Positions 2,555-53,755 are shown, counted from the stretch's first letter. The stretch: 64,000 nucleotides of DNA from Haliotis rufescens (GCF_023055435.1 NW_025963791.1:31496001-31560000), one strand, 5' to 3'. Numbers and translations are program-made. Notes: generated by a model not told the origin, from the sequence alone.

Positions 2555-3332
2555 TTAGTATCGACTACATTTGTACTCCTTCACTTCAGCATTACAACAG
2601 ATAAAGAAGGATTCGCGTGCATGACAGAAAATACTCTTCAGGCCAGACACGTTACCGTCTGACGTGAGCAGGTCTCTGACAAACTCTCCCGTCTCTGTCA
2701 GTTGTATGACCTTGTTGGAATTACTGTCCACCAGAAGTATGTCTCCCGTCCTGGCAGTGGAAATTCCATGAGGAACACCGAGAGCTCTGTCTCCGGTAGG
2801 GGCGTATCTCCACACAACATCCCCCTCTGATGTTAGACATGTCACAGACTTGTTCTCCCAGTCAGACACGACTATGTTGCCCTTGTTGTTGACACACATG
2901 TAGTCGGGGTAGGTAAATAGTCGCATATTGTTGTATGCATTAACTGACCTCAACACGAGCCCCGACATATCCAGGATATCAACACAATAGTCTGTACTTG
3001 CTGCTGGAGATGAAGGACTCAGAACAGCGAGACTGTAGTACCCAGTACGTGTTGTGATGGTTGATAGCAGCGCCAGGCCAGGGCTGACACCCACTGTTAC
3101 AATTTCACATGATTCGGGGACATCAACCAGCACCTGCTTCTCTTTCAGCTGTGTTACACCCCATGGAGATTGTTTCACACGACCCGTACTGAAACGTGGC
3201 GTCTTTTTTCTGGTGTAGAACGATGTTATGCAGTGATTGTCCCCGTCAGTGACTACAACTGTCTGTACACCGTCTACAACCAGGACTGCGACGTCACGGA
3301 TATTGAAGGACATTTTGGCACTGATCCGATAG
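2555..3332 (-). pseudogene. TRIM-NHL copy A: NHL-only remnant of copy E, 5' part deleted
   Basis: ORF 2555-3313 nearly identical to the C-terminus of 44602-45669; homology stops abruptly at 3332; no RING or B-box upstream. Confidence 0.85.
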
Positions 3333-3384
3333 TGTATGCACTCCAGTTTGCATATATGTGGTCATATGCACACAGTGCTTCAGT

Positions 3385-3966
3385 CAATCTCATTAAAATC
3401 AGATCTAAGTTCTCGCTGCCGCTAAACAAAGATCTGCGGACATCCTATAGTCAGAACGACCTTTCGGGAACTTTGACCTCCCACTGAAACGACTAACAAG
3501 AAGTCGACATCAGCCAATTATAAAGCAGCTTTCTCGAGCTTTGCGGCACTATTTTCAGACTACTTCCATTTCAGACTACGCTTGAAAAATATGTTGACAC
3601 ATTTCTCTATTGAAATTTAAAAACTGAACAGACGAACATTCCGGAATGTCTAATATATAGTTGTGATTGTATGGCAGTGCTTCCCACGAACTGTGCAACG
3701 CCTCCTCTGTTCAAATGTTTATCCCAAGGAAGCGAGACAGACGATCATTTTAACGGAATCATTCAAACGGGTCGTAACTGTCGTTCGGAATACCCCATGT
3801 TAACGTTTTCGAGGTTGCATGATTAGAAAACACATCACTTTCTTGATATGGTAAGCGACGCTTTGATTGGTCCGATGAAAGGTCGTTCTGACGTGACCCG
3901 TAATGGGATGTCCTCAGATCTTTGTTTAGCGATAGCGAGAACTAAGATCTGATTTTAATGAGATTG
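3385..3966. mobile_element. MITE with about 80-bp TIRs and 9-bp TSD (Mutator-like)
   Basis: caatctcattaaaatcagatct...agatctgattttaatgagattg; flanks tgcttcagt / tgtgtcagt. Confidence 0.8.
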
Positions 3967-6900
3967 TGTGTCAGTGGGCTTTAGTGCTGCAATCTCACTC
4001 TCATTGCAATGATTGCCTGTGTTTCTAGCATGAGTTTCTGTAATTACTGCCCTTCCTTCCAAATACTTGAACCTATCGAGGACATATCTGCACCGCCCGA
4101 CTCGGCGCCTATATATACGTGTTATCTATTCACTCAAGAGTAACCTCGACCCCCTTTTACAATCAACACTGGCAGAGCACACTATCGTCTCGGCACGTAG
4201 CCACCACTAGTTAGGTATAGGACCTATAGTAATCGAGGAACAATTGAGTGGATACGTTCACCGAAATTACAACTGGGGATTGCCTTTTATTTATATTATG
4301 TAACCGGTCAATGTCAATATATTTGAGTAATTGTAAAATTCAGGTAGCTTCTCAACTCTCTGTTGTAATAGAGTGGAATGATGTGATAACGTCTTGTTAC
4401 AACAGGCATCGATTTCAAGGCGTTTTGTCACTCAGATATCTCCAGCAGATTATGTATTATAGAAACAGTGAATGCTCAGTAACAGTTTGACATGATCTGC
4501 TTTTCAGAAAACGACAAGAGGTAACTTAATATCGGCCTTTCTGCTGGCTTTGCGTTAAGGTGTGGATTGCCGCCCTCAGATAAACTCGTCCTTTTCCGTG
4601 ACCGATCACTCGGCTAGTAAATCGCAAAAACTCGCCCCTGTCCGTAACCACAAAGAAGACTCGGCCGTGAATGTGAGCCAAGCGGGTAAAACTACAATAA
4701 CAGGCCTGCGTCTGAACACACTCGCGAATACAATGTTTTCGCGTTAAAAGTTCAGCCGTTTAATTTTCGTCTAATCACATATTTACGAAGTTACTTTTTT
4801 AGAAGCTTCTCTCCTAAATATATTTAAAATATACAACGGCATTTTGAAAAAATATAGTTTCAGCAGTGTAACTGTAAACAAAGCCTGCACTCGTCTGGAA
4901 TGATCACAGCAAGAATTGACTACAAACCGGCAATGGTTCAGTTGTTTTTGAATTCTTACAAAAGACTTTGTTCGTTCAAAACTGTTGAAATGACCCGAGA
5001 TGACCTTGGCAGATGGACATTTCTCCTCTTGACCTCTTACTAGTATCATCATCTTTGGCAGCTAAATGTTATTGGAAATTAAAATCTGTCAGGTGGTCTG
5101 ATTTTCTTAATTATGCCAGAATAAAATAGTACCTGGTCTCACAAATTAAAAAAACATTGATGTTTGTAAGGACAACATTACATTTTTGCAGGGAAATGTA
5201 TTTGGAAAGCCCCTGCTTTTGTAACGGACGTGATGGGCCAGTGTTAGACAAAGAAGGCCCATTTGTCTTGCGACGATACTAGGCCCAAATCTAACGATGG
5301 TTAACCCAAAGAGCAGTTTTGGATTGTGTCCAAATGTGGCAAAAACAGTTGTTTGTAAGCTTCTATTTATTTTAATGGTTTATAAAATTCGTTATGATCA
5401 TCTGCTCTTTTATTGATGGTGAATTCACCTCTCCAGTAAGTAGTTGTCTTCCGTCGACTTTATATACTCGTTGAGTTGACGTTATATCATTGATAATACA
5501 TTCAGAATAAAGTTTAAGAAAACTCTTTTTGTTGAAGATTGCATTTTCTTTTCTAAATACATCTGTGGTTGCACGAGTGCAAGCATACAAACTGTATTCC
5601 TCTTCACATACGGGTCCAGGATTGTTCGATTATATCAGGACCTAACTGAAAACGTAATTAAAGTTCCTAAATAATAGTTTTGAATACTGTAATTTTCACT
5701 TTGTTCGTTACAGTACATGTCTCCTATTACTGATCTACACCGGGTACAACGGTTACGGGAAACACTATCTTGACTTCGACCTTGCCGCCATATCGATGTC
5801 ATTCACTTTATTTCCTAGCCTTTAAATTATAATGGAGTATTATACATTTTTATTTTCAAACATTATATATTTCATATTACTCTATAAAAACAACAATGGT
5901 TTAATTGAACTTGCCTTATAAAAGGGTACAGGTTTACTCGCATTTGCAAACGAAGATGGAAACAAGTATATATACTCAAAGTTGCGACTTCCATTCCAGA
6001 CTAAGCTTTTTAAAGTATTCTGAATAAGTCAGACAGTCCGTAACATTTGTTTTGTGTTGAGCTTTAGAGGTTTCATGATTAGAAAAAATATTCCGCTAAC
6101 AATGTAATATAACAATATGAATATTTAATTTTTATTTTTTTATTACGTGTTTGTATCGTTATCTATCGTGTAGATTTTCGATCACGAACGTTGATATTAC
6201 TTAATTTCGTTTATCCGACATAACCGGGTTAACGGGACTTGACTGTATTACAGTAAAATAATGTCATGTAGAATAAAGGCAATAAACATCACTGTACGCA
6301 CATAGAGACATTCGTGTACATTGTCGTACCTACCTTCAGGGTTGACTACAGTTGAAAACATCGCCGTGTCATGCCTGTTTGTCTGAATGTTCTGCTCTCT
6401 AGCTGGTGGGCGTAAACATTGCTATCACAGGATAATCAGACACCCAAAGTCCAGGTCGAATGTCATAACGAAAGTACAACACGTTACTTCCTTCTACAGC
6501 AGTAATGGCTTATGTTCAATGATAAAAAGCAATATCCCAGTTCAAAAACGTGTTGTCTTAAGCTATGTGAATACTGGTAAATCTACGTTTTTACTGACTG
6601 GGTCAATGCATTGATAACAGCGATCGGCATTGCTCGCCCATTTCCGTGATCAGTCATTCGGGATGTGCAGGAAATATTTGGATGTGGATGATGGATGTTA
6701 AATGATCAAAAGTAATGACAGTAATACGCATTAATAATTGCGCCAATATATGTGCCCAAAAGGAGATCAGTATTAACGGTTCAGTGTGTCGTCTACAGTC
6801 TCATGTGCCTTATAGAACTATCCGTAAAAGAGAGAATCCATTCTTTTTCGATGATAAATGTCTCTCTTCAGCGACGCTAGAAATATGTGACCATTTGCTT

Positions 6901-7895
6901 GAGGTACAGTATATTTTTCGAATGACTGCAGACTGTTTAGTAACACGAAAGTCTGGTCAGCCAATCCAATTACCTATTCTCTGTTACAACATTGAATGTT
7001 AAAAATTAATAATTTTTTAATTTGATATATACACGATATACAACTTTTCCATTGGACGAGAAGTCGGTCACATGACCGCGAAATTGTCGTTCATAAGTGT
7101 ATGAACGACGCAATTTGACGTTCATACGTTTTTCACGAGACCGTGTGCTTGAAATGACGTAAAGATTAACGGACTACTTCCACATTCCTGGGAAAACGCG
7201 GGGAATTCCCTGGCACGAATACATACAGAAGCGTTCTTTCTTTACATTTAGACCCTTTAATCTTGATCTCAGCCTTTCAGTGTACATCGAGAAACGTCAG
7301 AGATTTTGACTGCATGATCGTTTAAGAATATCCCCGCTACGATCGAACCTATAGTAAACAAAACGAAGAAATGCACAACCAAACTATCGTAGTATCGACT
7401 CGATCCGTGTCTAGGATGATAGTGAGTCTACCACAATCTATGAATTCACCTTACTGTCTAATTAACACATCTTTAATCACCTTTCAATGATCGACCAGCT
7501 GAACAATGATGACTCAAACATGTAACCGCCACAGGTTCATTAGCAACTTCCGAAATCTCTCCCGTCACGTTTATCGTGTCGGCCATTTTGACGTTTTGTA
7601 CTTGATGTAAATGTATTACGACGCACTGTCATTGTTATTGACTTACTGAGGTATTTCTTAACAGGCATTTCTCATCTAATGAGGATATACATTTGTTGTA
7701 AAGAAACTACAAATGTTTTTCCTGTAGAGCATGTGGAGCATACATATGTTCATGTCACCTCACATTTTGAGGAACCATTTTTTTGCCGCGATACAGCTGG
7801 TTGTTGTATGGCTATCAGTGTAAACATGAAGTCATACAAAATGTTGCGTATAGATCTAGATCCTTTTAGGTACAAAATAGTGACACAAAAAATTA

Positions 7896-11099: not shown

Positions 11100-11101
<2 letters not shown>

Positions 11102-11159: not shown

Positions 11160-11160
<1 letters not shown>

Positions 11161-11553: not shown

Positions 11554-13356
11554 TCACACTAACATATACTCTCTCACATCCGTTTTTGTACACAGAAAGA
11601 AGAATCCGTATTTATCGCAGAATACATCACACACGTCTTTTGACTTGAGAACATCTCCAACTAACTCCCCCGACTCTGTCAGCTGAATCATTTCATTGGT
11701 GCTCCTGTCTACAAGCAGAATGTCTCCTTTGCTGGTAGTTGTGATGCCACGAGGCAAGCTGAGCGCTCTGTCTCCGGTAGGTGCGTATTTGAACACAACA
11801 TCACCTTCTGACGTTAGACATGTAACAGACTTCTTCCTCTCGTCAGACACGAGTATGTTGCCCTTGCTGTTGACACACATGTAGTAGGGGAAAGTAAACA
11901 GGGTCTTGTTGCGTTTAGTGAGTGTCCTCAGCACATGCCCCGCCATGTCCAGGATATCAACAACGCCGTATCCACCTGCTGCTAGGCAGGAAGGATTAAG
12001 AACAGCGAGACTGTAATACACCTTATTTGTTGTGAAGGACGAGAGCAGGGCCAGGTCAGGGGTCACTTTTACTGTTACAATCTGATGGGATCCAGGGACA
12101 GCAACCATAACCTGTTTCTCCTTCAACTGTGTTACACCACATGGAAGGTCACCCAGGGGAAGTTTACTTTGACATCGCTGGTTGTTTGTTGTGTAGAAAG
12201 ATTTTACACACTCATTCTTCATGTCGGTAACCACAGCAGTCTGTGTACCGTCTACAACCAGGACTGTGACGTCGCGTAGATCAGCCTCTTTCTCATCACC
12301 CGCCATCCTCCCGTCTTTAATTCCAACTAGCACAGGCGACAACAGACATTTCGTCTGATCCTGATATGTGACGTGAATCTTTCCCAGATGTAGGTTATCT
12401 ATGATGTGCTGGACATGCTCAGCGTTTGATGTAAACCTGACGTCGTCTATTCTCCGTGTGTCTACTGTGTCTGTGTCCCTGACATCCCCCAGCTCTATAG
12501 CTCCCGACTCCAAGGCCTGATACGCGTCATACAGGTTCATCACACAGTCCGATACCAAGGCCTGGTCAATGAACTCACAATGTTGTCTGTACATATGCAT
12601 CTCAATCTCTTCAAGCTTCAAACCAGAACGGAGTTGGCCGGCGTACGTCTGTGTAATGGTATTCTGTTCATCCAAGAGTTGTGTTTCTTTCTGTTTAATC
12701 TTGTTTATAGTTGTCTGACATATAGACCTAATATGTTGTACAGCTGACTCTTTAACTCTAAAAATAGTCTTGAGTTTCTTATTTTTCATCTCTACTTTCT
12801 TCGACCTCACTTTCAGTCTCTTCCCCATGTCAAATCTCTTCTCCAGCAGTGCTGCCTCCATCTCTGGCTTCATAGACTCAATGGTGACGACAGTTTTACA
12901 AGCTCTGTGGTAGGTGATATAACATGTCTGACATGCAGCCTTCTGACAGTCTTTGGGGCGGTCGGGTAGCCTAGTGGTTGAAGCGTTCGCTCGTCACGCC
13001 GAAGACCCGGGTTCGATCCCCGACATGGGTACAATGTGTGAAGCCCATTTCTGGTGTTCCCCGCCGTGATATTGCTGGAATATTGCTAAAAGCGGCGTAA
13101 AACCAAACTCACTCACTCTGACAGTCTTTACAGTGGAACTCTACATTGTTACTCTTGTGCTCTGTACACTTGACCCTCCGTCTGTCCTTTGACCTAGATG
13201 ACAGGTCACACAGATCATGGTCCTGTGACGTAGGGCTCACCCGGTGTGTCTTCACACATCTGTCACAGAGGGCCACTTCACACTCAGGACACCACATAGC
13301 ACCTGGAGTTGTCTCCCCTATTTGCTGACAGATCGTACAACAGGTGCTTGACGTCT
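11554..13356 (-). CDS. TRIM-NHL copy B large exon (B-box1, B-box2, coiled coil, NHL), interrupted by a SINE
   Basis: Acceptor ttctcttcacag at 13357; CTICQQ..WCPECEVALCDRC..H..H; CTEHK..FHCKDCQ; intact 439-aa downstream frame with NHL repeats. Confidence 0.85.
12955..13116 (+). mobile_element. Short tRNA-derived SINE (162 bp) with (ACTC)n tail and 13-bp TSD
   Basis: A-box TAGCCTAGTGG, B-box GGTTCGATCCC; TSD tctgacagtcttt at 12942-12954 and 13117-13129. Confidence 0.95.
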
Positions 13357-14652: not shown

Positions 14653-17519
14653 CTAATGATCTTTCTTAGCATGGCTTATATATTGTGTTTATGTCATTTT
14701 ATAATCAAATCTGTGATTTACCGATTGAGAAATGGAGGCCAATTAAACAATTTAACAATCATGTCCACAAAATCAACTTGATATATTAAATAACATTATT
14801 TCTGTCACTCTTAATGCGGACTGTTCTGTGCATGACATTAACTGTTGTGGGTATGCTGCTGCTCGAACACTGGAGGAACTCGATTCAGTTTCCAAAAACA
14901 ATGAACCACAAAAGTGCAAAAAACAAAATCATCCAAAGAAAAACCGGTTCCAAATAAATCTAAATGAAACAAAGAAAGACATATCCTGGATAGAACTTTG
15001 CTTAGAATTACGTTCATCGGGGCAATCAATGTCAAAACAAAAGACCCCATTTGGAAAACTTTAAAAACAAAATACAAGACAACAAAAGAGAAGATTCTTA
15101 ATCAAATTCTTGATTCTCTTAAAACGAAGTTAAGGTTTGGACAGAGAGAAACAGAAAGTGGGACAAGAAAAATATTTTCATAAAACAAAACAAATTGTCC
15201 AAATCTAATGTCCACTGTCCAAACACCATTACTTCTCTTGTGGATACAGGGGGTGCTCCGCCTTGGTTCTGCATAGGTCGAACAATACTTATCCCAAAGA
15301 AATTTGAAATTTGACTGACCCTAAAAACTTCCGCCCTATAACTTGTCTAATACACAGTACAAAATATTCAGCAGGTGTCTCACAGATCTTGTGTCATCAT
15401 ACTACGCTTCCAATGACATTTTTTACATCGAGCAGAAAGGAGCCAGAAAGGGATGCTGGGGTTGTAAGAAACTGTTACTGAGGCTGAGACTTACCACCGT
15501 AATCTCAAAATGTGTTGGATAGAATACAGAAAAGCTTATGATTCTGTACCTGATGAATGGATTTTAAAGTCACTGGAATGTATTGACTTCCCTGAGAGAC
15601 TACTAGTTTTACTCAAGTCTTTAATGAATTGCTGGACAACTCAACTTGAGATGTATTCGTAGTGGCAGGTGGGAACCCATTCCTGTTAGAAGAGGAATAT
15701 TTCAGGGCGATTCTTTTAGTCCTTTGGTTTTCTGCTTGTCACTTAATCCTTTAGGCTTTTTTCTCAGCAAAGAGGAAGGTCATCATCCGGGACCTCCTCA
15801 GCACAGATCCCCAACATCCCTTGCTCACCCTCCTTTCCATATATGACCTTCAACTGATTGCCAGTGGAGGATTCACACTAGAAAAAACGATTCTAACTGG
15901 TCGAGTCCTTTTCTAATGATATTAACATTCTTCATCTGAAACGTGACATGGTAGAAGTGGGAGGATCAGTCAGTTTACTTAGGGGAGGAGTTATTGACCA
16001 TCACGTGGAAGGTCAGGCCTATACGTACTTCGGAATGCAGGTTAGGGACAAACTCCAGAGTGCCCAAAGCAAGGACAAACATTGGGAAGAGTACAAATGT
16101 AGACTTATGAAAATCTGAAGTTCAGGGCTGAACGCTAGCAATAAAGTCTAAGCCACAAATACTTGTGCTGTACCCGTCCTTTTGTATTCTTTTGGTGTTG
16201 TTGATTGGTCAAAACAAGAAATTCAGGGTATTGACACCCTCATACGAAGAATCATGTCAGACAATAGATCCCACCATCCCCGCTCTTCCTTCAATCGCTT
16301 ATTTTTACCAATCATAATGGGAGGGCGTGGTTTGATAAACGTTGGGGCTCTTCAGGATAGAATTGTCTTTTTGTCTGATAATCCTCTTGTGAAGCATGTC
16401 AAGACTCATGATGAAAGCAAGGCATTTCTCAGTTTTGGTAAACGAGCCAAGGATGTAGGACATATTCTCAATGTCAAAGTGGATTTTGTTGATTGTTCTG
16501 TACTGCTGGACGGTACAGAAATGAGTGTCAACCAAGCGAGGTGCCATATCAAATCGGCTTAGACTCAGGTTTTCAAAGAGAGGTTATCTGAACGACCACT
16601 GCATCGAGTCTATGTGCATTGTGTTAAGAAGGAGTCCTTTGCTTGGATGAAGTCGGTTGGCCTGAGAAGTGAAACTGAAGGCTTTTTTTTGGCTGCTCAG
16701 GATCAGTCACTTCCCACTCGAAACCGTCAATGTGTGATTTTGCATTAAAATGTAAATGTGAAATGTAGATTTTGTAATGAATTAAAAGAGACTATCCAAC
16801 ACTTTGTCAGTGGATGCCCAGCTTTGGCACAAACACAGTATCTTAAGTGACAAGATGGAGCGGCTCGATCATTTAATTTCGGTTTTCACACAGAGGTCCA
16901 TCCATGGTACGCCCCATGGGCGTCATAGAAAAGGATAAATACAAAATTCTTTTGAATAGGCCCGTTTACATCCTCAGAAATATCCAGGCCAACAAACCTG
17001 ATCTTGTACTTTTTGATAAATCCAGTGAAATCATTTATATTATTGAATTTTCTGTCCCTTTTGACACAAAAACAAGACAAATATGCAGACCTCTCTTTCG
17101 AAATGTCACGCTTGCATCCCAAGTACCAAGTTGTCCAACTCCCAGTGGTTCTCGGTGCCTTGGGATTGGTAACGCCCAATCTGTTGACTGACATTGAGAG
17201 AGTATTCAGGTTTGCTACCAGGAATAATGTAATGTGTGGGTAATGTAGAAGGTAGCAGTGTTGGGGAGTCTTCACATTCTCTGAAGAGTTCTGGGTGGGC
17301 TTCACTAGGTAGCGCTTCCTGGGAGAAGTCCCATTCGCTGTCTGGGCTGCATGTAGAGGGGGAAGGGCCCAGAGATGATGATGAGCCTAAGCAGCCTGAC
17401 TGTGCCAGGATCACCCAAACCCTCTTTGCTGCATTGTTTATTTCTTCTGTTAGTAAAGGTAATAATAATATTCCATTGTAGGGCGGATATATCCATGCAT
17501 AGTGCAGGCTAATAAGAAG

Positions 17520-19246: not shown

Positions 19247-19553
19247 CTGGCACATGTTCCTCGGTCCTGAGGGTGTCAATCAGCCCCTGTATAATGATGC
19301 TGGGTTTGATCTGCCCCGCCCACTCCTCCACTGGCCTGCTGGGGTTGGGGACCTTGGTATCTTGTCGACAGCAGGGACAGGGGATTGTCTTGGAATGTAC
19401 AGCATCTGGTCTGGTTTGGATGTACTTGGTGATACATCTTTGACAGAAAGTGTGGTGGCAGGTCAGTGTACACGGGTCTGTGTAGGTCTCGAAGCAGATG
19501 GAGCACGTCAGGAAATTATCCGTTACTTTCTTTCCCAGCCGGGCGGTAGCCAT
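19247..19553 (-). CDS. TRIM-NHL copy B RING exon
   Basis: CSIC..PCTLTCHHTFCQRC..CPCC C3HC4 RING; ttaacag|ATG; phase-1 donor G|GTTAAG. Confidence 0.9.
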
Positions 19554-24140: not shown

Positions 24141-24807
24141 CGTAAAACGAGATCAAGCACAGTTAAACCGGCAACCGTTACAGTTCTATGCATGGACGTG
24201 TACGGACGTCGCTATAAGTGAAATAGTCTTGAACGCAACCTTAAGCACCATTTCACCTCGCCGTTGCATTTGAGCTGGCAAAGGAAGATAATTCTCACCT
24301 CTGAAAACTGTAGATTTCTCATCAACATATAGATCAGACTGACACGTTGTTATACCACTGAAATCTTGTTCAAAGGGAGCCGGAAAGCCAAATTCACTCA
24401 CTCAGTTTCGTGTTCAGATAACATTGGTTTGCTTAGCGTTTGGTATCGGTGTCGGTGATGAGATCCATATCCTTCCGATGTACTTAAAAACTAATCAATG
24501 CAAATTACAACGACTGAACTTGTCTCATAAAAGTGTAGAAGTTTACAACCTAACCGGGCGGTAGCCATCAGTTAAATTTAGTATTTAATAGTATTCCTTC
24601 ATAGTTTAACATGTTTTATATTTGCATTTATATATATATACACCTTTGTATCTGCATCATGTATCTGGCTTCTTTATTACCTGGCTGCAAATAATATATC
24701 TACATGTGCGCAGTATGATATACTGTACCTGTCTGCACGTGCAAATGGATTAAAACAAACAAGTTCAGTTATATTATTGTTGTTTGTATATATACTCAAT
24801 GCAAACA

Positions 24808-28730: not shown

Positions 28731-29217
28731 TTCGGGCCTATAGACCGTTCCAGTGATAACGTCGACACATCAAAATATCGAAGTCAAAGACTCAGGTGAG
28801 CGCGCACTGTGCATGGACACAGTTAAAGTGATGTGGAGCATCAAACTTCAAACTCAAGCCGCAAGTAGTCATCAGTATTATTTATGATGTTACAAAATGA
28901 GCACAAACAATTAAACAGTCCCTTTATCTACTGTACTCTTCTATGTATTGGTTAAAAATTGTCCATGAGACAGTAACAAACACATTACTGGTTTGAAGTA
29001 TAGGGAAAGTGCACTACAGTTTGAAATTTGTGCAAATCCAGATAAAAATACTTTACAGAAAATTTTGGGAGCTATACTTTTGATACAAAGCCTCCTCACG
29101 TTTACACGTAAGCCAACTTCTTAAGACGTGAATATGTAAATTAATCTTACATTTCTTTGATTAATACTGAAATGTTTGTAAGTTGTGTACTGAACACAAA
29201 CCATTCCTCAGTTAAGA

Positions 29218-29597
29218 GTTCACGTCATCATCAGCTGTCCTCACATCTATCGTGTCAACCAGCACTAGAGACGGCAGACATGGTCCCTGATCCTGGTATG
29301 TGACGTGTGTAATGTGCGTAAATCATCCCCAGCTGTAGGTCATCTAGAATGTGCTGGACGTTGTCAGTGTCAGGTGTGAACATGATGGCATCTATTCTCC
29401 GTGTGTCTGCTGTCCCTGACATCCCCCAACTCTAGGGCCCCCGACTCCCAGGCCTGATACGCATCATACAGGTCCATCTCACAGCCCGATACCAAGGTCT
29501 GGTATATCAGCATCTCAATCTCTTCAAGCTTTACACCAGAACGGAGTTGTCCGGCATACATCTGTGTAATGGTTGTCAGTTCATCCAAGAGTTGTGT
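29218..29597 (-). pseudogene. TRIM-NHL fragment, coiled-coil end to pre-NHL linker
   Basis: QLLDELTTITQMYAGQLRSGVKLEEIEM..MDLYDAYQAWESGA, with deletions and frameshifts; truncated on both sides. Confidence 0.9.
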
Positions 29598-29599
29598 AT

Positions 29600-29900
29600 G
29601 ATGGGATCTACCCATCTTAAACAGCCGAAAGAGAAGTCTTCTTCATTCTGGCAAATTACTCTACAACGGCTACCATAAACACGATAGGACCACTGGTCTA
29701 AGTTGTCACACGATACAGCATGTTGATTTTTTCTGACATTTTTCTCACATGCAACACATCGAAAGGCCAGTGTGAATAATTGTGAGTTTACAATTGTTTT
29801 TGTCTTTTTCAACACGCGAGAAACACTTGACTTGGCAATACCATGTATATATCCTAATTCGCTTAGAAATCCCCCCTTTAAATAGTATTCAAGTGCCATT
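29600..29900 (-). mobile_element. Possible Harbinger-transposase HTH and PHD-like fragments
   Basis: ALEYYLKGGF..LG..HGIAKSSVSRV; CVACEKNV..AVSCD..QW. Confidence 0.35.
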
Positions 29901-30467: not shown

Positions 30468-31310
30468 TCCATTCCTTCTCATTATATCCTTCAAAACACC
30501 ACAGCAACGATGTATTTTTTGAAAAAGGGACATTCAGTCCACTACATCATTTTAAATTCCTATTCAGAAAAAAGTGTTCGAGATGAGAATTTTTCTGCAA
30601 AGTATGAGCAAGATTACAATAATGTTTATAATAACCGAATACCTTTAAAATATACATAAAGGTGTAATGCTGCGTTCTTCTTCTTAGTAGATTTCTAATG
30701 TCTAGGTTTTCAGTTCAGGGGACGTACTTAGAATGCCTCCGTAGAACAAATAAGTGGGATATTATCGAGAATGTTCAATTCACATTGCAAAGGTATGTTG
30801 ACAATAACAACTCAGCTGCCCTTTTGCTGAATCATCGGCCCTAGACTTTTCCGAGCATACGTGTTGCCAGCGTGTCATGCATGTCCTCAGCAATGTGGTA
30901 TATTTTCTCGATACGGTTACGTTTCGCTGCATTTGTGTCCCGGAAGTTCATACTCCAGACAAACAGTTATAGCATTACGTTAGGATCATGTAGTCCGAGT
31001 CAGCCCACGTACTCTACAACAACTATTACTTCTGATGTGTTTTACTTAGTGACCATGTGAACTATTACAAAGTTGTAAGGGACCCATTTGAATAGACTAT
31101 GTCTGCACTTGACTGAATAAGCGATACATATTGGTTTTCAGGAAGACTTTAATTGGTACTGAGTGTTTTATACATTGATAGGGTCTATTTTTTTATCAAC
31201 AACATTTTCAGAGTAACCCTATATGCATAACTTGCAGTCAATGACTACACCTTGAATTCCATCAACAAATACTCTTTCACTTTAGCTTTTGTACATAGGA
31301 AGAAGGATCC

Positions 31311-32141
31311 TTATTTATCACAGAATATATCATTTAGGTCGGCCAGGTCATCATCATATTCTGACGTGAGAACATCTCTGACAAATTCCCCCGACACTGT
31401 CAGCTGTATCACCTTGTTCCTGTCTACAAGCAGGATGTCGACAGTTCTGGTGGTTGTGATACCAGAAGAGCAGCAGAGTGTTCTGTCTCCGGTAGGGGCG
31501 TATCTCCACAAAACATCCCCCTCTGACGTCAGACATGTCACAGACTCAGCTTCCCAGTCAGACACGAGTATGTTGCCCTTGTTGTTGACACACATGTTCC
31601 AGGGGTAGGCAAACAGTGTCTCATCGTTGTGTTCAGTGACTGACCTCAGCACGTGTCCCGCCATATCCAGGATATCAACAATGCCGTAACCATCATAATC
31701 TAGACCACCTGCTGCTAGAGATGATGGACTCAGTACAGCAAGACTGTAGTACCCCTTGCTTGTTGTGATGGTTGAGAGCAGCACCAGGTCAGGGGTCACT
31801 TCTACTGTCACAATCTGTCTGGAGTCAGGGACAGCAACCATCACCTGGTTCTCCTTCAACTGTGTTACACCATAGGGAGAGTTATCCAGGGGAAGTCTAC
31901 TGTGACCTGACTGGCTGTCTCTTGTATAAAAAGATTTCATACACATGTTCCTACAGTCATTGACCAGAACTGTATGTATACCGTCTACAAACAGGACTGT
32001 GATGTTCTGTCGATCAGGCCCCAACTTATCATCATCTGCCATCCTCCCATCTATCGTGTCAATCAGCACTGGAGACGACAGACATGTGCCCTGATCCTGG
32101 TATGTGACGTCAATCTTCCCCAGCTGTAGGTCAGCAGCCAC
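31311..32141 (-). pseudogene. TRIM-NHL copy C: 5'-truncated NHL domain with a premature stop
   Basis: Homology to copy D starts only at DLQLGKIDV (about 32133); FCDK* where paralogs read FCDKYGFFFLC (TAC>TAA). Confidence 0.85.
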
Positions 32142-35633: not shown

Positions 35634-37285
35634 TCACACTAACATATACGCTTCCACTTCTGTGTTTGTACACAGAAAGAAGAATCCGTATTTATCACAG
35701 AATATATCCCACATGTCGTTATCATCATATTCTGACGTGAGAACATCTCTTACAAATTCCCCCGACTCTGTCAGCTGTATCACCTTGTTGCGGTCTACAA
35801 GCAGGATGTCGCCAGTTTTGGTGGTTTTGATACCAGAAGACCTGCGGAGTGCTCTGTCACCGATAGGGGCGTATCTCCACACAACACCCCCCTCTGACGT
35901 CAGACATGTCACAGACTTCTTTCCAAAGTCAGACACGAGTATGTTGCCCTTGTTGTTGATAAACATGTATAAGGGGCAGGCAAACAGTGTCTCGTTGTTG
36001 TGTGTAGTGACTGACCTCAGCACGTGTCCCGCCATGTCCAGGATATCAACAATGCCGTAACTATCACAATCTTGACCACCTGCTGCTAGAGATGATGGAC
36101 TCAGTACAGCAAGACTGTAATATTCCTTGCTTGTTGTGATGGTAGAGAGCAGCACCAGGCCAGGGGTCACTTCTACTGTTATAATATGACTGGAGTAAGG
36201 GACAGCAACCATCACCTGGTTCTCCTTCAACTGTGTTACACCATGGGGATGGTCATCCAGGGGAAGTCTACTTTGACATAGTTGATTGTTTCTTGTGTAC
36301 AAAGATTTCACACACTTGTTAACCCAGTCAGTGACTACAACTGTCTGTATACCATCTACAACCAGGACTGTGACGCCACGTAGATCAGGCTCCACTTTAT
36401 CACCCGCCATCTTCCCATTCATCACGCCAACTAGCACTGGAGACGGCAGACATGTGCCCTCATCCTGGTATGTGACGTCAATCTTCCCCAGCTGTAGGTC
36501 ATCTAGGATGTGCTGGACGTTGTCAGTGTCAGGTGTAAACCTGACGTCATCTATTCTCCGTGTGTCTGCTGTGTCTGTGTCCCTGACATCCCCCAACCCT
36601 ACAGCCCCCGACTCCCAGGCCTGATACGCGTCATACAGGTCCATCTCACAGTCCGACACCAAGGCCTGGTCAATGAACTCACAATGTTGTCTGTGCATCT
36701 GAATCTCAATCTCGTCAAGCTTCACACCAGTGCGGAGTTGGCCGGCGTACGTCTGTGTTATGTGATTCAGTTCATCCATGAGTTGTGTTTCTTTCTGTTT
36801 AATCTTGTTTATAGCTGTTTGACAGATTGATTTAATATTGTTTACAGTTGTCTCTGTGATTCTTGAACTATTTTGCAGTTTCTCGTTTTTCATCTCTACC
36901 TTCTTCGACCTCACCTTCAGTCTCTTCCCCATGCCAAATCTCTTCTCCAGCAGTACTGTCTTCATCTCTGGCTTCATAGACTCAATGGTGACGACAGTTT
37001 TACAAGCTCTGTGGTAGATGATACAACATGTCTGACAAGCAGCCTTCTGACAGTCTTTACAGTGGAACTCGACATTGTTACCCTTGTGCTCTGTACACTT
37101 GACCCTCCGTCTGCCCTTTGACCTAGATGACAGGTCACACAGGACATGGTTCTGTAAAATAGGGCTCACCCGGTGTGTCTTCACACATCTGTCACAGAGG
37201 GCCACTTCACACTCAGGACACCACAGGGCACCTGGAGTTGTCTCCCCTATTTGCTGACAGATCGTGCAGTATGTGTTTGACGTCT
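35634..37285 (-). CDS. TRIM-NHL copy D large exon (B-box1, B-box2, coiled coil, NHL propeller), intact
   Basis: Uninterrupted frame; acceptor cttcacag; with the RING exon gives 1953 nt, 650 aa. Confidence 0.93.
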
Positions 37286-37640
37286 CTGTGAAGAGAAGTA
37301 CAAACGTATTGTTTCTAAAAAAAAACAATATGGGAATGCTAAGCATGTAAACAGTCTTTATTTTAAGTTCAATAACCTATCCAACTTGATGAACTATTTC
37401 AAGTTTCAATTTCTCATGAATAAATACTATATCATAAACACAGGTGATTAAATCAACTTAAATATTACAACTGGTTGTACTTTCTCTTGTTCACTTGGCT
37501 AACCTTCCACCAAATAATTCATCAAACTGGATTGACATTACTTCTGATTAATACGTTTTAAGATCTTTTTGTCATAAATTTATCTTTCGATGAACATGAT
37601 TAACTGATCCATATGAATGTTACTTCTGGTTGAACTTAAC

Positions 37641-37941
37641 CTGGTACATCACCCTCAGCCCCGAGGGTGTCAATCAGCCCCTGTATAATGATGCTGGGTT
37701 TGATCTGCCCCGCCCACTCCTCCACTGGCCGGCTGGGGTTAGGGACCTTGGTATCTTGTCGACAGAAGGCACAGGGGATCGTCTTTGACAGTACAGCATC
37801 TGGTCTGGTCAGGATGTACTTGGTGACACATTTCCTGCAGAATGTGTGATCACACCTCAGTGTACACGGGTCTGTGTACAGTTCCTGGCAGATCACACAG
37901 GTGAGGAATTCCATCACTTTCTCATTCTGGGATGTCGCCAT
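37641..37941 (-). CDS. TRIM-NHL copy D RING exon
   Basis: CVIC..PCTLRCDHTFCRKC..CAFC; ttttcag|ATG; donor G|GTTAAG; candidate UTR-exon donor AG|GTAAGT at 38082. Confidence 0.92.
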
Positions 37942-39555
37942 CTGAAAAACCAGAATTGAAGGTCACATAAATCATTTTTCAATTTTTCAAAATATATTTT
38001 TTCTGGTGAAGTTCGTCTGTCTCTGTTATGGGACAATTTGTATTTTGGTTGGCACATCTTGAAAATGTCACTTCGGACTTACCTTCCACACCAAGCTGAC
38101 AACTGAAATACATGTACTGTTCGAAGTGGCACATATCCAAATTCCTTCACGTGTTGAGTGCGTCATTAAATATGTTGAGACATCTGTTATTGACAGTCGA
38201 ATGTGTAGTTTGTCTCAATGTTGTTCACCATCAACATCACATGTCAACTACATCATAGTGATCTGTAGTATGTCAAGATTCGACCACTCAAACCATCAGC
38301 AGCTACTGTCGTAAGAGGGTTTATTCTTCATATAAAATCAACTGCATTATTTCATAAAAGTTGAAAACATCCGTTTACTGTTTGGCACATCACATATAAT
38401 TCCTTGTTCCAAAAGTGACAGTGAGTATGTCGAGTGTTCACCAGGCAACCCCACAGCTGCTGGTATGACAAACGTTGAGTCCAGAGGTCAGGGTACGATC
38501 ACACATTGTAAGAAACTGTTCAAATTGAGTCGCAGTGATGACAAGCGTTGGTTACTTGAGATATATATTCAGCCTCAAGTGGGATAGTCTCTCAGTAAAT
38601 CAGACTTTAATATTCTTTTCAAATCAACTTGAAGATATAAATATGTGTTCCTAAATTGTCTATATTGGCCGTTCCATAGTGCTATAGAAATACATATATA
38701 TTGATATAACGCAAAACAAGGCTTTTCCGAAACGTGGGTCTAGATCTCTATATATGTTTATCCTTGTATTTGAACTAAACCTTTCCCTCATTATAGTTAA
38801 ACTCATTATCGTAATGACTTACTGACTCTGCTAAAAGAACAAGCTTGTTGTTTCCGCACAATACAGGATTTACCTGCAGAGATGAACTAAAACTGAATAT
38901 ATTAATTATAGTGATATTGTGAGGTCAGGCTTAATCGCGGGTGTGACATTATCGATCTTATTTGAAATACGCACGTGTTTCCTATTAAAGTTTTAAAAAC
39001 TACCAACGGTCAGTATAAATAAATAAATTTTGTTAACACCAAGCTTTCCCTTACAGTAAATAGACACACCGCCCCACCCTTTTCACAATACAGGGAGGTA
39101 ACTGAACGTTAGTATTCGAGACTAAGTCAGATATCTATCTTTAGTGTGTCAGTTTTACCAGAGACCATATAATCTATTATATGGTTTCTGAAATAACCAA
39201 ATCCCGCCAAGATACACAACTGTGCACGGAGGTAACTACAAAAGAAATGTTTGGGCCGAGACATGAAACTGCCCTCCCTCTTACTGTGTTGCGAAACGAC
39301 TATATGTCGTAAACGTTTCTTTACTTATAAGCAGCAGAATCTCTGTACTTGCACCCAACCAGCATAATTCAAAGTTAACATTGTTATTATTACTTTCACC
39401 CAAATCACTATCGTGTCACTGGATTTTCTGGTTCACCGATCACTTGATTATCAGAATTGTTTACAGGCCACCGCCGCATGGCAGTAGAACCTCTGTGCGG
39501 AGTCAGGCAATATATACTTACTTTTTAATGCAAGTCGGCGGATAATCTAGACAGG

Positions 39556-39701
39556 TTATTCGACTTGGACTGTACAGCATCTGGTCTGGTTGGATGTACA
39601 GAAAGTTGTGTGGCAGGTCAGTTTGCACGGGTATGTGTACGTCTCGATGCAGATGGAGCACGGCAGGAAACTATCTTTCACTCTAGCCGGGCGGTAGCCA
39701 T
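39556..39701 (-). pseudogene. Decayed RING-exon relic
   Basis: MATARL, then a frameshift, VKDSFLPCSICIETYTYPCKLTCHTTFC, an internal deletion, and a QTR remnant. Confidence 0.85.
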
Positions 39702-40435: not shown

Positions 40436-42807
40436 AGAACGCCTACACATGTCTCCTCACTGCCTTAGATGCACACACGTCAACAGAACGCCTACACATG
40501 TCTCCCTACTGCCTTAGATGCACACACCTCAACAGAACGCCTATACATGTCTCCTCACTGCCTTAGATGCACACACCTCAACAGAACGCCTACACGTCTC
40601 CTCACTGCCTTAGATGCACATACCTCAACAGAACGCCTACACATGTCTCCTCATTGCCTTAGATGCACATACCTCAACAGAACGCCTACACATGTCTCCT
40701 CACTGCCTTAGATGCACACACCTCAACAGAACGCCTACACATGTCTCCTCACTGCCGTAGATGCACACACCTCAACAGAACGCCTACACACGTCTCCTCA
40801 CTGCCTTAGATGCACACACCTCAACAGAACGCCTACACATGTCTCCTCACTGCTGTAGATGCACACACCTCAACAGAACGCTTTCACACGTCTCCTCACT
40901 GCCTTAGATGCACACACGTCAACAGAACGCCTACACACGTCTCCTCACTGCCTTAGATGCACACACGTAAACAGAACGCCTACACATGTCTCCTCACTGC
41001 CTTAGATGCACACACGTCAACAGAACGCCTACACACGTCTCCTCACTGCCTCAGATGCACACACGTCAACAGAACGCCTACACATGTCTCCTCACTTCCT
41101 TAGATGCACACACGTCAACAGAACGCCTACACATGTCTCCTCACTGCCTTAGATGCACACACGTCAACAGAACGCCTACACATGTCTCCTCACTTCCTTA
41201 GATGCACACACGTCAACAGAACGCCTACACATGTCTCCTCACTGCCTTAGATGCACACACCTCAACAGAACGCCTTCAAATGTCTCCTCACTGCCTTAGA
41301 TGCACACACCTCAACAGAACGCCTACACATGTTTCCCCACTGCCTTAGATGCACACCCGTCAACAGAACGCATTCACGTCTCCTAACTGCCTTAGATGCA
41401 CACAGGTCAACAGAACGCCTACACACGTCTCCTCACTGCCTTAGATGCACACACCTCAACAGAACGCCTACAGGTCTCCTCACTGCCTTAGATACACACA
41501 CGTCAACAGAACGCCTAGACATGTCTCCTTACTGCCTTAGATGCACACACGTCAACAGAACGCCAACACATGTCTCCTCACTGCCTTAGATGCACACACC
41601 TCAACAGAACGCCTACACACGTCTCCTCACTGCCGTAGATGCACACACGTCGACAGAACGCCTACACATGTCTCCACATTGCCGTAGATGCACACACCTC
41701 AACAGAACGCCTACACATGTCTCCTCACAGCCTTAGATGCACACACGTCAACAGAACGCCAACACGTCTCCTAACTGCCTTAGATGCACACACGTCAACA
41801 GAACTCCTACACACGTCTCCTCACTGCCTTAGATGCACACACCTCAACAGAACGCCTACACATGTCTCCTCACTGCCGTAGATGCACACACGTCAACAGA
41901 ACGCCTACACACGTCTCCTCACTGCCTTAGATGCACACACCTCAACAGAACGCCTACACATGTCTCCTCACTTCCTTAAATGCACACACGTCAACAGAAC
42001 GCCTACACGTCTCTTCACTGCCGTAGATGCACACACCTCAACAGAACGCCTACACATGTCTCCTCACTGCCTTAGATGCACACACCTCAACAGAACGCCT
42101 ACACATGTCTCCTCACTGCCTTAGATGCACACACGTCAACAGAACGTCTACACATGTCTCCTCACTTCCTTAGATGCACACACGTCAACAGAACGCCTAC
42201 ACATGTCTCTTCACTGTCGTAGATGCACACACCTCAACAGAACGCCTACACATGTCTCCCCACTGCCTTAGATGCACACCCGTCAACAGAACGCCTTCAC
42301 GTCTCCTAACTGCCTTAGATGCACACACGTCAACAGAACGCCTTCACACGTCTCCTCACTGCCTTAGATGCACACACCTCAACAGAACGCCTACACGTCT
42401 CCTCACTGCCTTAGATGCACACACGTCGACAGAACGCCTACACATGTCTCCACATTGCCGTAGATGCACACACCTCAACAGAACGCCTACACGTCTCCTC
42501 ACTGCCTTAGAAACACACACGTCAACAGAATGCCTTCACATGTCTCCACATTGCCGTAGATGCACACACCTCAACAGAACGCCTACACATGTCTCCTCAC
42601 TGCCTTAGATGCACACACCTCAACAGAACGCCTAGACATGTCTCCTTACTGCCTTAGATGCACACACGTCAACAGAACGCCAACACGTCTCCTCACTGCC
42701 TTAGATGCACACACGTCGACAGAACGCCTACACATGTCTCCTCACTGCCTAAGATGCACACACCTCAACAGAACGCCTACACATGTCTCCTCACTGCCTT
42801 AGATGCA
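40436..42807. repeat. 49-bp minisatellite (agaacgcctacacatgtctcctcactgccttagatgcacacac[c/g]tcaac), about 49 units, some 47 bp
   Basis: Direct reading. Confidence 0.98.
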
Positions 42808-42842
42808 CGCCCTTATGTGCTTCATTGTATACACGCCTTGAA

Positions 42843-44601: not shown

Positions 44602-45659
44602 TTAGTATGGACTACATTTGTACTCCTTCACTTCAGCATTACAACAGATGAAGAAGGATTCGCGTGCATGACAGAAAATACTCTTCAGGCCAGACACGTT
44701 ACCGTCTGACGTGAGGACGTCTCTGACAAACTCTCCCGTCTCTGTCAGTTGTATGACCTTGTTGGAATTACTGTCCACCAGAAGTATGTCTCCCGTCCTG
44801 GCAGTGGAAATACCATGAGGAACACCGAGTTCTCTGTCTCCGGTAGGGACGTATCTCCACACAACATCCCCCTCTGATGTTAGACATGTCACAGACTTCT
44901 CCCCCCAGTCAGACACGAGTATGTTGCCCTTGTTGTTGACACATATGTAGTCGGGGTAGGTAAATAGTCGCATATTGTTGTATGCATTAACTGACCTCAA
45001 CACGAGCCCCGACATATCCAGGATATCAACACAATAGTCTGTACTTGCTGCTAGAGATGAAGGACTCAGAACAGCGAGACTGTAGTACCCAGTACGTGTT
45101 GTAATGGTTGATAGCAACGCCAGGCCAGGGCTGACACCCACTGTGACAATTTCACATGATTCGGGGACAGCAACCAGTACCTGCTTCTCTTTCAGCTGTG
45201 TTACACCCCATGGAGATTGTTTCACACGACCCGTACTGAAACGTGGCGTCTTTCTTCTGGTGTAGAAGGATGTTATGCAGTGATTGTCCCCGTCAGTGAC
45301 TACAACTGTCTGTACACCGTCTACAACCAGGACTGCGACGTCACGGATATTAAAGGACATTTTGCCACTGATCCGATAGGTATCAATGGTGTTGACCAGC
45401 ATCGGTGCCTTGAGATTACCTTTACCTTTGTCATTGTGGTCAGCCGTCTCAATCTGTGGGGTCGGCTTGTCGCTTTTACTCTCTCCCCCCTTATCTCTGG
45501 TTTGCAGGTCAAAGAGGTCATGGTCACTTGACATAGGGCTCACCCAATGTATCTTCACGCATCTTTCACAGAGGTCCACTTCGCATTCAGGACACCACAA
45601 GACTCCTGCAGTTATCTCCCCTAGTTGCTGACAGATTGTGCAGCAATTGTTTGTTAACA
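44602..45659 (-). CDS. TRIM-like copy E large exon: B-box1, short linker, NHL (no B-box2 or coiled coil)
   Basis: Acceptor tttgcag; intact frame; with the RING exon gives 1341 nt, 446 aa. Confidence 0.88.
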
Positions 45660-46109
45660 CTGCAAACATAGAATGATGTGAGTATTGTCACATGATAATT
45701 GAAATCTATTTATTCTATTTATTATATGAAATGTCTAAAGTGTTTAATACTCAGACAGAATGTAACAGCATAGACATAAACAAACCAGTAAATCAATAGT
45801 TACAACTTACATGCCATGCCTCAACGTTAATCAACCTGTAACTTAAGGGATAGACATTTCTTTTCTCGTTGATACATGTTATCGTCTAAACATAACAGCC
45901 TTCTGTAATTTTCATATGTTTTATATACCTGTTTTCACTCACTATTCATGGCATATTTTGTAAACAACTTTGGTTAGTAATATAGATTTCTCAAATCAAC
46001 AAATATCCTTTAAAGTACATTTTATTTCCGTATTCTACGTTTTAATCAAACAAGACGTATCAATATAAATAATAAAATAGGTTCAACATTTAGAACGTTT
46101 TCACTTTAC

Positions 46110-46392
46110 CTGGTTTGTTTGTCAACTTCTGTAGAATGATGCTGGGTTTGATCTGCCCCGCCCACTCCTCCACTGGCCTGCTGGGGTGGGGCACCATGGT
46201 ATCTTGTCCACAGCAGGGACAGGGGATCGTCTTGGACTGAACAGCATCTGGTCTGGTTTGGATGTACTTGGTGATACATCTCTGACAGAAGGTGTGGTGG
46301 CAGGTCAGTGTACACGGGTCTGTGTACGTCTCAAAGCAGATGGAGCACGTCAGGAAATTATCCTTGATATTGTTTCCGTTCCGGGTAGCCAT
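46110..46392 (-). CDS. Copy E RING exon
   Basis: CSIC..CHHTFCQRC..CPCC; ttaatag|ATG; donor G|GTAAAG, phase 1. Confidence 0.9.
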
Positions 46393-51417: not shown

Positions 51418-53065
51418 ACTAAACCTTCATCTTTCGCTTTCTATCAGACATATACTCTTTCACTTCCGTGTTTGTACAGAGAAAGAGAGATCCGTATTTA
51501 TCACAAGATATATCACACATATCTTTTGATGTTAGGACATCCCTGACATACTCCCCCGACTGTCAGCTGTATCACCTTTTTGATGTCCCCGGCTACAAGC
51601 AGGATGTCTCCTGTGCTGGTAGTTGAGATACCACGAGGTTGACCGAGTGCTCTGTCTCCGGTAGGGGCGTATCTCCACACAACATGCCCCTCTGACGTCA
51701 GACATATCACAGACTGCTTCCCCCAGTCAGACACGAGTATGTTGCCCTTGTTGTTGACACACATGTAGGTGGGGTAGCTAAACAGTGTCTTGTTTTGTGT
51801 TGTCATTGACCTCAGCACGTGTCCCGCCATGTCCAAGATATCAACATAGGCCATACCACCTGCTGCTAGAGATGAAGGACTCAGAACAGCGAGACTGTAG
51901 TACACCTTGCTTGTTGTGATGGTAGAGAGCAGCACCAGGTCAGGGGTCACTTCTACTGTTACAATCTCACTGAATTCAGGGACAGCAACCATCACCTGGT
52001 TCTCCTTCAACTGTGTTATTCCCAATGGAGAGTAGACCAGGGGAAGTCTACTTTGACATGGATGATTGTTTCTTGTGTAGAACGATTTCACACACGTGTT
52101 ATTGAAGTCAGTGACAACACATGTCTATATACCATTGACAACCAGGACTGTGACGTCACAAAGGTAAGGCTTATCTTCATCATCCGCCATCCTCCCGTCT
52201 ATCGTGTCAACCAGCACTGGAGACGGCAGACGTGTGCCCTGATCCTGGTATGTGACGTCAATCTTCCCCAGCTGTAGGTCATCTAGGATGTGCTGGACGT
52301 TGTCAGTGTCAGGTGTAAACCTGATGTCATCTATTTTCCCTGTGTCTGCTGTGTCTGTTTCCCTGACATCCCCCTTCTCTACAGCCCCCGACTCCCAGGC
52401 CTGATACGCGTCATACAGGTCCATCTCACAGTCCGATACCAAGGCCTGGTCAATGAACTCACAATGTTGTCTGTACATCTGCATCTCAATCTCTTCATGT
52501 TTCACACCGGAGCGGAGTTGGCCGGCGTACGTCTGTGTAATGTGATTCAGTTCATCCAAGAGTTGTGTTTCTTTCTCTTTAATCTTGTTTATAGCTGTTT
52601 GACAGATTGATTTAATATTTTGCACAGTTAACTCCGTGCTTCTTGAACTATTTTGTAGTTTCTCGTTTTTCATCTCTACCTTCTTCGACCTCACCTTCAG
52701 TCTCTTCCCCATGCCAAATCTCTTCTCCAGCAGTACTGTCTTCATCTCTGGCTTCATAGACTCAATGGTGACGAGAGTTTTACAAGCTCTGTGGTAGATG
52801 ATACAACATGTCTGACAAGCAGCCTTCTGACAGTCTTTACAGTGGAACTCTACATTGTTACTCTTGTGTTCTGTACACTTAATCGTCCGTCTGCCCTTTG
52901 ACTTAGATGACAGGTCACAGAGGTCATGGTTCTGTAAGATAGGGCTCACCCGGTGTGTCTTCACACATCTGTCACAGAGGGCCACCTCACACTCAGGACA
53001 CCACAAGGCACCTGGAGTTGTCTCCCCTATTTGCTGACAGATCGTACAACAGGTGCTTGACTTCT
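51418..53065 (-). pseudogene. TRIM-NHL copy F large exon: B-boxes and coiled coil intact; nonsense codon at the NHL start and a later frameshift
   Basis: CAG>TAG at 52125-52127; frame continues to a 2-nt deletion at about 51560 (cgactgtcag versus cgactctgtcag). Confidence 0.85.
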
Positions 53066-53448
53066 CTGTAAACACAAATACGAACATATTTTTTTCTGAA
53101 ACCTCACAAAATGGAAACGCTAAGTAAGCAGTCTTTATTTTATTTCAGGGAAATAAGCCCGATCAAAATTGATGAATTTTTTTCAATTTAAACAGCGATT
53201 AATCAAACTGAATAATACAACTGGTTGTACTTCTTATAAACGTGTTATCACTTAACTTTGTTCATCTTCAACAAAAAGAAATCATCAAACTGGATTGACA
53301 CTCGTTAATTATGTTTAATGTTTCGTGTACAAATTGTTACATATTTGTTCAATATTATTTCATAAGTGTATCTAATTCTTAAACACAATAGACGTATCAA
53401 TACGAATGCCACTACTGGTTGAACATATAAATTTTGTTTTCACTTAAC

Positions 53449-53755
53449 CTGGCGCATCTTCCTCGGTCCTGAGGGTGTCAATCAGCCCCTGTATAATGAT
53501 GCTGGGTTTGATCTGCCCCGCCCACTCCTCCACTGGTCTGCTGGGATGGGGGACCTTGGTATCTTGTCGACAGAAGGCACAGGGGATCGTCTTGGACTGA
53601 ACAGCATCTGGCCTGGTTTGGATGTACTTGGTGATACATCTCTGACAGAAGGTGTGGTGGCAGGTCAGTGTACACGGGTCTGTGTACGTCTTGAAGCAGA
53701 TGGAGCACGTCAGGAAATTTTCCTTCACTTTCTTCTCCAACTGAGCAGTAGCCAT
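53449..53755 (-). CDS. Copy F RING exon
   Basis: Intact RING; ttaacag|ATG; donor G|GTTAAG. Confidence 0.85.

Follow-up and report, generated by a model that had tools for sequence, protein, structure and literature searches.

Diversifying selection on the predicted top face of the NHL propeller in a birth-and-death family of abalone TRIM-NHL genes

A 64,000-nucleotide stretch of the Haliotis rufescens genome (GCF_023055435.1, NW_025963791.1:31496001-31560000), here called the window, raises the question of why tandem copies of one gene type should differ so radically at the same loops of their C-terminal NHL domains. The minus strand of the window holds eight copies or relics of this gene, designated A, B, C', C, D, D', E and F, each derived from a structure of two coding exons, of which the first encodes the RING and the second all remaining domains. 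An earlier note, made from the sequence alone, had described about nine copies; tblastn and nhmmer give eight, with no ninth copy in the window by tblastn or by nhmmer at E<=1. Each of the 26 motif strings quoted in that note is present on this strand where it should be. The locus is part of an abalone-expanded RING-B-box-coiled-coil-NHL family, which by architecture and fold is a member of the TRIM-NHL group (C-VII; Marin subfamily C).

Codon selection and its position on the propeller

Codon site models were fitted with our own implementation of GY94 with F3x4 frequencies, using an IQ-TREE tree with its relative branch lengths, one scale factor and naive empirical Bayes posteriors. Three clades were analyzed: clade I, with 15 local copies over 265 codons (E types, copy A and two badly broken copies excluded); clade II, in which 24 copies were kept once near-twins, a divergent pair and one copy with a stop had been removed; and clade III, in which 13 were kept after removal of two near-twins and one copy with a stop. 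For the NHL domain of clade I, the likelihood-ratio test (LRT) statistic was 145 for M1a/M2a, 166 for M7/M8 and 138 for M8a/M8, with omega, the ratio of nonsynonymous to synonymous rates (dN/dS), reaching 4.6 at 11.6% of sites; the 10 intact copies by themselves gave 126, 144 and 124. The M7/M8 statistic was 446 in clade II and 165 in clade III, with omega 5.4 in both, and 12-15% of NHL codons are selected across the three clades. Many of the selected sites recur, with 13, 11 and 14 common to the clade pairs (Fisher p ~1e-9 to 1e-10). The five window copies B, C, D, E and F, taken alone over 221 codons, yield an M8a/M8 LRT of 33.9 and an omega of 3.7, so the loop variation first noticed among them goes beyond chance and neutrality. 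The RING, by the same approach, returned an LRT of 0, and the B-box and coiled-coil region M8a/M8 values of 4.1, 1.3 and 0. A marginal signal for the latter region in clade I (LRT 4-6, omega 1.5) falls within the range of recombination nulls and was rejected.

The selected sites were placed on a predicted structure. From a 149-sequence alignment, AlphaFold2 returned an NHL model of 24 strands with a predicted local distance difference test score (pLDDT) of 96.7 and a predicted template-modelling score of 0.93; a single-sequence model, with pLDDT 32.7, was discarded. The predicted domain fits a six-bladed NHL propeller closed by its first strand, and the closest structures are the NHL domains of TRIM3, LIN41, TRIM2, TRIM71 and Thin (Z 29-30, root-mean-square deviation 2.7-2.9, about 255 residues aligned, 15-18% identity). 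The Pfam NHL model passes its cut-off in A, B, C, E and F and is weak in D (17.9 bits, below cut-off). The top face of an NHL propeller is defined by its b-c and d-a loops (PMC4015489). With faces assigned from DSSP topology rather than coordinates, selected sites make up 13 of 88, 20 of 86 and 13 of 89 top-face positions in the three clades, versus 0 of 59, 1 of 59 and 0 of 59 in the bottom loops, which are equally exposed yet have a dN/dS of 0.31. Many of the remaining selected sites lie where strand a begins, around the mouth of the channel, and a few on outer strands (V388, L436) fall outside this pattern.

The pattern can be sharpened to four slots per blade, namely both sides of a conserved Pro and the two residues after a conserved Asp. 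These 24 slots, whose register is supported by HMMER for blades 4-5, hold 11 of the 19, 17 of the 32 and 16 of the 21 selected sites (p 1e-8 to 1e-15), and 21 of them are selected in at least one clade. The 14 RNA contacts of LIN41 (residues from PMC5908797) also fall in these four slots per blade, bar one. Slot signatures are nearly all different, 61 being distinct among 68 copies. Diversifying selection on the predicted top face, with omega above 1 at loop sites in three clades and no comparable signal in the RING, B-boxes or coiled coil, is what the earlier note had anticipated; the sequence-level outcomes it had named as refuting, a dN/dS of 1 or less at these sites and variable residues scattered or buried, were not observed.

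The signal persists under each control applied. Separate trees for 3 or 6 segments leave the M7/M8 LRT at 139 and 132, while 8 null simulations on mosaic trees gave statistics of 0-8.0 with omega no higher than 1.44. When multi-base changes are allowed, at each of four fixed rates, the M8a/M8 LRT falls to 104, 76, 52 and 31 (76 at the best-fitting rate), and removing all columns within three of any gap leaves 61-75. A tree-free comparison agrees: 39 sites picked in clades II and III show in clade I a dN of 0.58 versus an NHL-wide dS of 0.25, a ratio of 2.3 (bootstrap 1.8-3.0). Because dS is equal on both faces (0.27 top, 0.28 bottom), local hypermutation is no explanation. The selection is site-specific; pairwise dN/dS over the whole NHL domain is 0.59, and neither the whole domain nor the whole top face would alone give a sign of it.

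Duplication, loss and recombination in the array

A genome search with the NHL domain of D, in which 149 of 416 candidates were scored so that the count is a lower bound, found at least 149 matches, each with E<=1e-10. The window's contig carries 77 of these, 74 of them within about 3 Mb, and the 274 kb around the window contain 22 NHL-bearing copies, 13 of them frame-intact (10 full-length, 3 of E type). Multi-kilobase blocks, flanks and minisatellites included, recur at 90-97% identity, a pattern that fits unequal crossing-over as the putative process. Tandem copies, pseudogenes and recombination between paralogues were all seen, in keeping with the birth-and-death array that had been proposed: duplication, loss, recombination and selection all operate on the family. 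Named homologues of D, among the matches listed, number 120 and are all from Haliotis. More distant relatives (about 30% identity) form 10 clusters, of which the 8 that are named comprise 5 from Haliotis, 2 from Gigantopelta and 1 from Lottia; atlas look-alikes with a known phylum are mostly from Mollusca.

Open frames occur in the window only in D (650 aa) and E (446 aa). In D, exon 1 (37641..37941) encodes a C3HC4 RING, a GT..AG intron of 355 bp follows (37286..37640), and the intact exon 2 (35634..37285) encodes B-box1, B-box2, coiled coil, linker and six-bladed NHL (35637-36452). Zinc ligands are intact in the alignment, and the D protein is identical to the recorded Haliotis rufescens LOC124132530. 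A GT..AG joint matching the D intron is present in contigs from 3 of 4 runs examined, in three studies; none of the runs that contain the gene is recorded as RNA, so that these are only presumed to be RNA, and the contigs, 92% alike, are possibly derived from paralogues. Two more contig joints, whose ends do not look like splice sites, were discounted as artefacts of paralogy. Copy E likewise has an intact exon 2 (44602..45659), in which B-box1 nearly abuts the NHL domain, B-box2 and the coiled coil being absent, and a RING exon 1 (46110..46392) in which the Arg that follows the last Cys is replaced by Gly.

The remaining copies are damaged to various degrees. Copy B retains a RING exon 1 (19247..19553), a 5.9-kb intron and an exon 2 (11554..13356) encoding B-box1, B-box2, coiled coil and NHL, interrupted by a short interspersed nuclear element (SINE). 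Copy F has a RING exon 1 (53449..53755) and an exon 2 (51446..53065) broken by a TGA (52125-52127) and by a frameshift near 51552-51562. Copy C (31260..32134) is 5'-truncated to its NHL domain, with an in-frame TAA at 31311-31313 near the end; C' (29203..29609) is a decayed coiled-coil and linker relic, and D' (39551..39701) a RING relic. Among the five copies compared in the earlier note, its statement that B-box and coiled coil are conserved therefore holds for B, D and F but not for the NHL-only C or for E. Copy A (2555..3337) is an NHL-only fragment that belongs to the E type and matches E at 95% identity; at about 3331-3337 it meets DNA that is homologous to sequence upstream of F, in what is likely a deletion junction. 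The duplicate of that upstream region is 4.4 kb long (3331-7742, 94% identical to 54213-58749) and abuts the E-type NHL of A, as if an F-like gene had been deleted together with the front part of an E-like one.

The E type (44602-46392 in the window) had been taken for one more variant in the hypervariable series but is instead a separate, conserved subfamily with a fixed top face. H. cracherodii (95%) has it too, as does H. asinina (72%), and the top face is conserved across the three Haliotis species. Locally (G000:C13, 31.457-31.589 Mb) there are three intact copies, one frameshifted copy and one fragment; a second short form, P0272 (474 aa), lies on another contig and has seemingly lost the same region. 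Each of the three intact local E copies has Gly at the position of the Arg that follows the last RING Cys, which we take to be the catalytic "linchpin"; in H. asinina the Arg is retained. The E type, lacking a coiled coil, may be a fixed-specificity partner or regulator.

The SINE-like insertion in B-box2 of copy B (12955..13116, minus strand) accounts for 175 bp including a 13-bp target-site duplication; the site is empty at the 14 other paralogue sites found, and 23 related matches lie within the 274 kb. It is young. By eye, it has a donor-like GTGAGT start and an AG near its far end, and splicing between one donor/acceptor pair would bring back the frame at the cost of three added residues, in which case the element could behave as a new intron. 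Within the 5.9-kb intron of B, degenerate LINE-like frame fragments on both strands were recognized by eye at 16152-18404; three of these pieces gave no Pfam match. An open frame of a BEL/Pao long-terminal-repeat retrotransposon polyprotein, of at least 1584 aa with DUF1759, protease, reverse transcriptase, Peptidase_A17 and integrase zinc domains, occupies 59249-64000 on the plus strand and extends past the window end. Minisatellite arrays with 28-bp and 49-bp units lie at 24807-26985 and 40436-42808, and related longer arrays occur at distances of about 106 kb and 144 kb, within paralogous blocks. An Rfam search of the window gave 0 matches. Elsewhere on the contig (G000:C13 32429639-32441710), three NHL copies spaced about 5.5-5.9 kb apart, with similar scores and one TGA each, may be either a broken copy that was recently triplicated in tandem or a repeat produced by the assembly. 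Three database models fuse a family member to a fucosyltransferase (P0035), an Arf fragment (P0105) or a second family copy (P0122), and probably reflect annotation read-through.

The ligand and competing explanations

We assign a probability of roughly 0.6 to the proposal that the family is a germline-encoded repertoire of intracellular detectors, driven by an arms race, that bind diverse pathogen proteins. Unequal crossing-over would make and delete copies and recombination would swap RING exons and propeller blades, so that copies duplicate, vary at their top-face slots, have their modules shuffled and, once spent, are lost. Dimers formed through the coiled coil would offer a target two propellers, much as TRIM5 offers its B30.2 domains, and a foreign target once bound would be ubiquitinated or signalled on via the RING. 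The ligand would be foreign and mostly protein because the slots are rich in Tyr, Trp, Phe, Gly, Asp and Ser (the first three account for about 22% of the residues there) and carry a neutral or acidic net charge. Circumstantial support comes from oysters, where TRIM2/3-like transcripts track Perkinsus tolerance (PMC9892467), and from ten TRIM genes among candidates for OsHV-1 resistance (PMC9437489). A bolder version, to which we give slightly less than an even chance, casts the NHL propeller as an antibody-like scaffold, with more than 100 germline genes, some 24 slots, shuffled blades and RING exons, ubiquitination of pathogen proteins, and the E type as partner or decoy.

Several observations weigh against this proposal. 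The site models are not PAML and do not use Bayes empirical Bayes, and for blades 1-3 and 6 the register of the slots was fixed by eye, from DSSP, with the selected sites already known. Recombination is present (PHI-type test, p=0.0005). Measured against their own dS of 0.37, the 39 cross-validated sites have a ratio of only about 1.6, and pairwise dN/dS over all 94 top-face codons is 0.94. Just two of the eight window copies are intact, and in the E and B types the top face does not change fast. The available text of the oyster papers (PMC9892467, PMC9437489) provides no evidence that their TRIMs are orthologues of the abalone family. Ligand, ligase activity and immune role are matters that we infer. 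The simple picture of a constant ligase module also has to be qualified: no positive selection is found there, but dS is 0.08-0.15 in the B-box and coiled-coil region versus 0.26 in the NHL domain, and D and a paralogue, g10, share an intron at d=0.04 yet have an NHL dS of 0.36. N-terminal constancy therefore comes partly from exchange between paralogues, that is, from homogenization by recombination.

The best surviving alternative, itself unlikely, is internal genetic conflict, in which the ligases chase fast-evolving transposon proteins, or proteins of the germline or of meiotic drive, rather than infectious agents. The same evolutionary signature would be expected, canonical TRIM-NHL proteins act in the germline, and the locus is rich in mobile elements; direct support is absent, however, and the size of the family (at least 149 matches), with the associations of mollusc TRIMs with infection, suits immunity better.

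Slightly less probable still is a set of variable RNA sensors, the top face of each paralogue binding a different viral or transposon RNA shape in the manner of LIN41, Brat or TRIM56, the last of which restricts viruses in an RNA-dependent way. As many as 12 of the 14 positions equivalent to LIN41 contacts are selected in at least one clade, and NHL top faces are known to switch RNA-binding mode between subfamilies (PMC5908797). The chemistry of the slots is contrary. At the 8 basic slots of LIN41, Lys or Arg is found nowhere in 47 of the 68 copies, once in 18 and twice in 3, and all 68 copies keep 0-2 of the 14 contact residues; slot net charge runs from -6 to +4 in the family, versus +8 in an abalone TRIM71-like gene (L094) that keeps 14 of 14. 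Net charge over the whole top face is 0 or negative in 65 of 68. The missing basic slots and neutral or acidic charge point to protein or other non-polyanionic ligands, so the analogy to RNA-binding NHL proteins drawn in the earlier note is not supported, and a shared RNA-binding mode, or RNA binding as a general property of the family, is unlikely on these residues. By the same measure, the conserved basic RNA cavity being absent, the family does not belong to the TRIM71/LIN-41 subfamily. Other canonical NHL genes are present: L092 and L093 (G000 C446 and C445), which seem to be duplicates of each other, are long RING-B-box-NHL genes of Brat/Mei-P26-like type in a single frame, and L096 is another.

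Diversification for host substrates or partners, by which the copies would be neofunctionalized housekeeping or stress adaptors under no arms race, is improbable. Its support is that the family evolves at two speeds. Among 27 proteins from a partial H. cracherodii repertoire, 9, which belong to the B type, the E type and two lineages of clade III, are separated from the nearest copy here by only 0-2 slot differences. Between E and its counterpart in H. asinina, 3 of 24 slots differ, versus 65 of 240 other sites; some lineages, the B and E types, do keep the top face fixed across species. The other 18 of the 27 differ from the nearest copy at 4-19 slots, pseudogenes are frequent (13 of the 22 local NHL-bearing copies are intact), and the same sites are struck repeatedly in three clades. 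Least of all do we credit an artefact of relaxed loops with gene conversion, multi-base mutation and misalignment in a decaying array, an idea largely refuted, despite real recombination, many broken copies and the modest NHL-wide dN/dS, by the segment-tree, mosaic-null, multi-base and gap controls, by the constraint on equally exposed bottom loops and by the same result from intact copies only.

Relation to known systems and significance

Class membership rests on several domain matches. PF00097 exceeds its cut-off for the RING of D and of an E-type protein, B-boxes match PF22586/PF00643 (two in D, one in E), and a family profile of the D type aligns with the RING-to-coiled-coil region of TRIM3 (8amr), with E 3e-43, and with that of TRIM28. 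The E type, without a coiled coil, is TRIM-like only. No filamin domain is matched by Pfam between coiled coil and NHL, where only about 55 residues are found, and in place of B30.2/PRY-SPRY the C-terminal domain is an NHL propeller by both fold match and Pfam. RefSeq names were rejected as evidence of orthology, since TRIM56-, TRIM71-, TRIM2-, wech- and Midline-1-like all occur among near-identical paralogues.

A conserved ligase-coupling module with a selected substrate domain, for which foreign protein targets have been proposed, also characterizes the F-box and BTB adaptor expansions of nematodes and plants; those are cullin adaptors, whereas the abalone family has the architecture of a single-chain RING E3 ligase. 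Known TRIM-NHL proteins (TRIM2/3, TRIM32, TRIM56, TRIM71/LIN-41, Brat, Mei-P26) share with it the RING, two B-boxes, coiled coil and C-terminal six-bladed NHL. The abalone NHL is only 15-18% identical, no filamin domain was found with it, its RNA-contact slots are hypervariable where those of known members are conserved, and its at least 149 matches compare with 3-5 members in flies, worms and mammals (PMC4015489). Aplysia has 22 TRIM genes (PMC9334734), and two selected sites in primate TRIM2 lie outside known domains (PMC3845644). Closer in evolutionary behavior are TRIM5/TRIM22 and the fish finTRIM, btr and trim35-like B30.2 genes, which are likewise multigene families with a RING, a B-box and a coiled coil that recombine, some 5-10% of sites being positively selected, in C-terminal ligand-binding loops (PMC3137616). 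The abalone family, an invertebrate one known from sequence, resembles these in being a tandem multigene family with positive selection on a predicted ligand-binding C-terminal surface, but the recognition domain is B30.2/PRY-SPRY there and an NHL propeller here. WD-repeat sensors of fungal NOD-like receptors (Podospora het-d/het-e, nwd) have four selected positions per repeat on the propeller's interaction face and, as in abalone, shuffling between family members (PMC4986451); they are NACHT proteins with near-identical repeats, while in abalone the blades diverge from one another and a RING serves as effector. Malin/NHLRC1 has RING plus NHL without a B-box (PMC3503706), and the E type is similarly RING-NHL without a coiled coil, but E retains B-box1 and derives from the abalone family, so that the resemblance probably arose by independent domain loss.

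Positive selection on the NHL propeller is real, statistically robust and, it seems, new for this domain; in the main texts of the open-access literature we found no account of selection acting on molluscan TRIM-NHL propellers. The known TRIM-NHL proteins are few, conserved regulators of RNA, and fast-evolving antiviral TRIMs are known from vertebrate B30.2 families. If the proposed reading is true, invertebrates would possess a large and specific intracellular recognition repertoire built on the NHL propeller, a counterpart of TRIM5 and finTRIM on another domain. It would also give a concrete reading to the "TRIM2/3-like" genes that recur in shellfish disease studies, where the available text of the oyster reports links them to disease without domain-level analysis (PMC9892467, PMC9437489). 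The 24-slot signature would provide a handle for typing alleles, for associating them with resistance in farmed and endangered abalone, and for discovering ligands.

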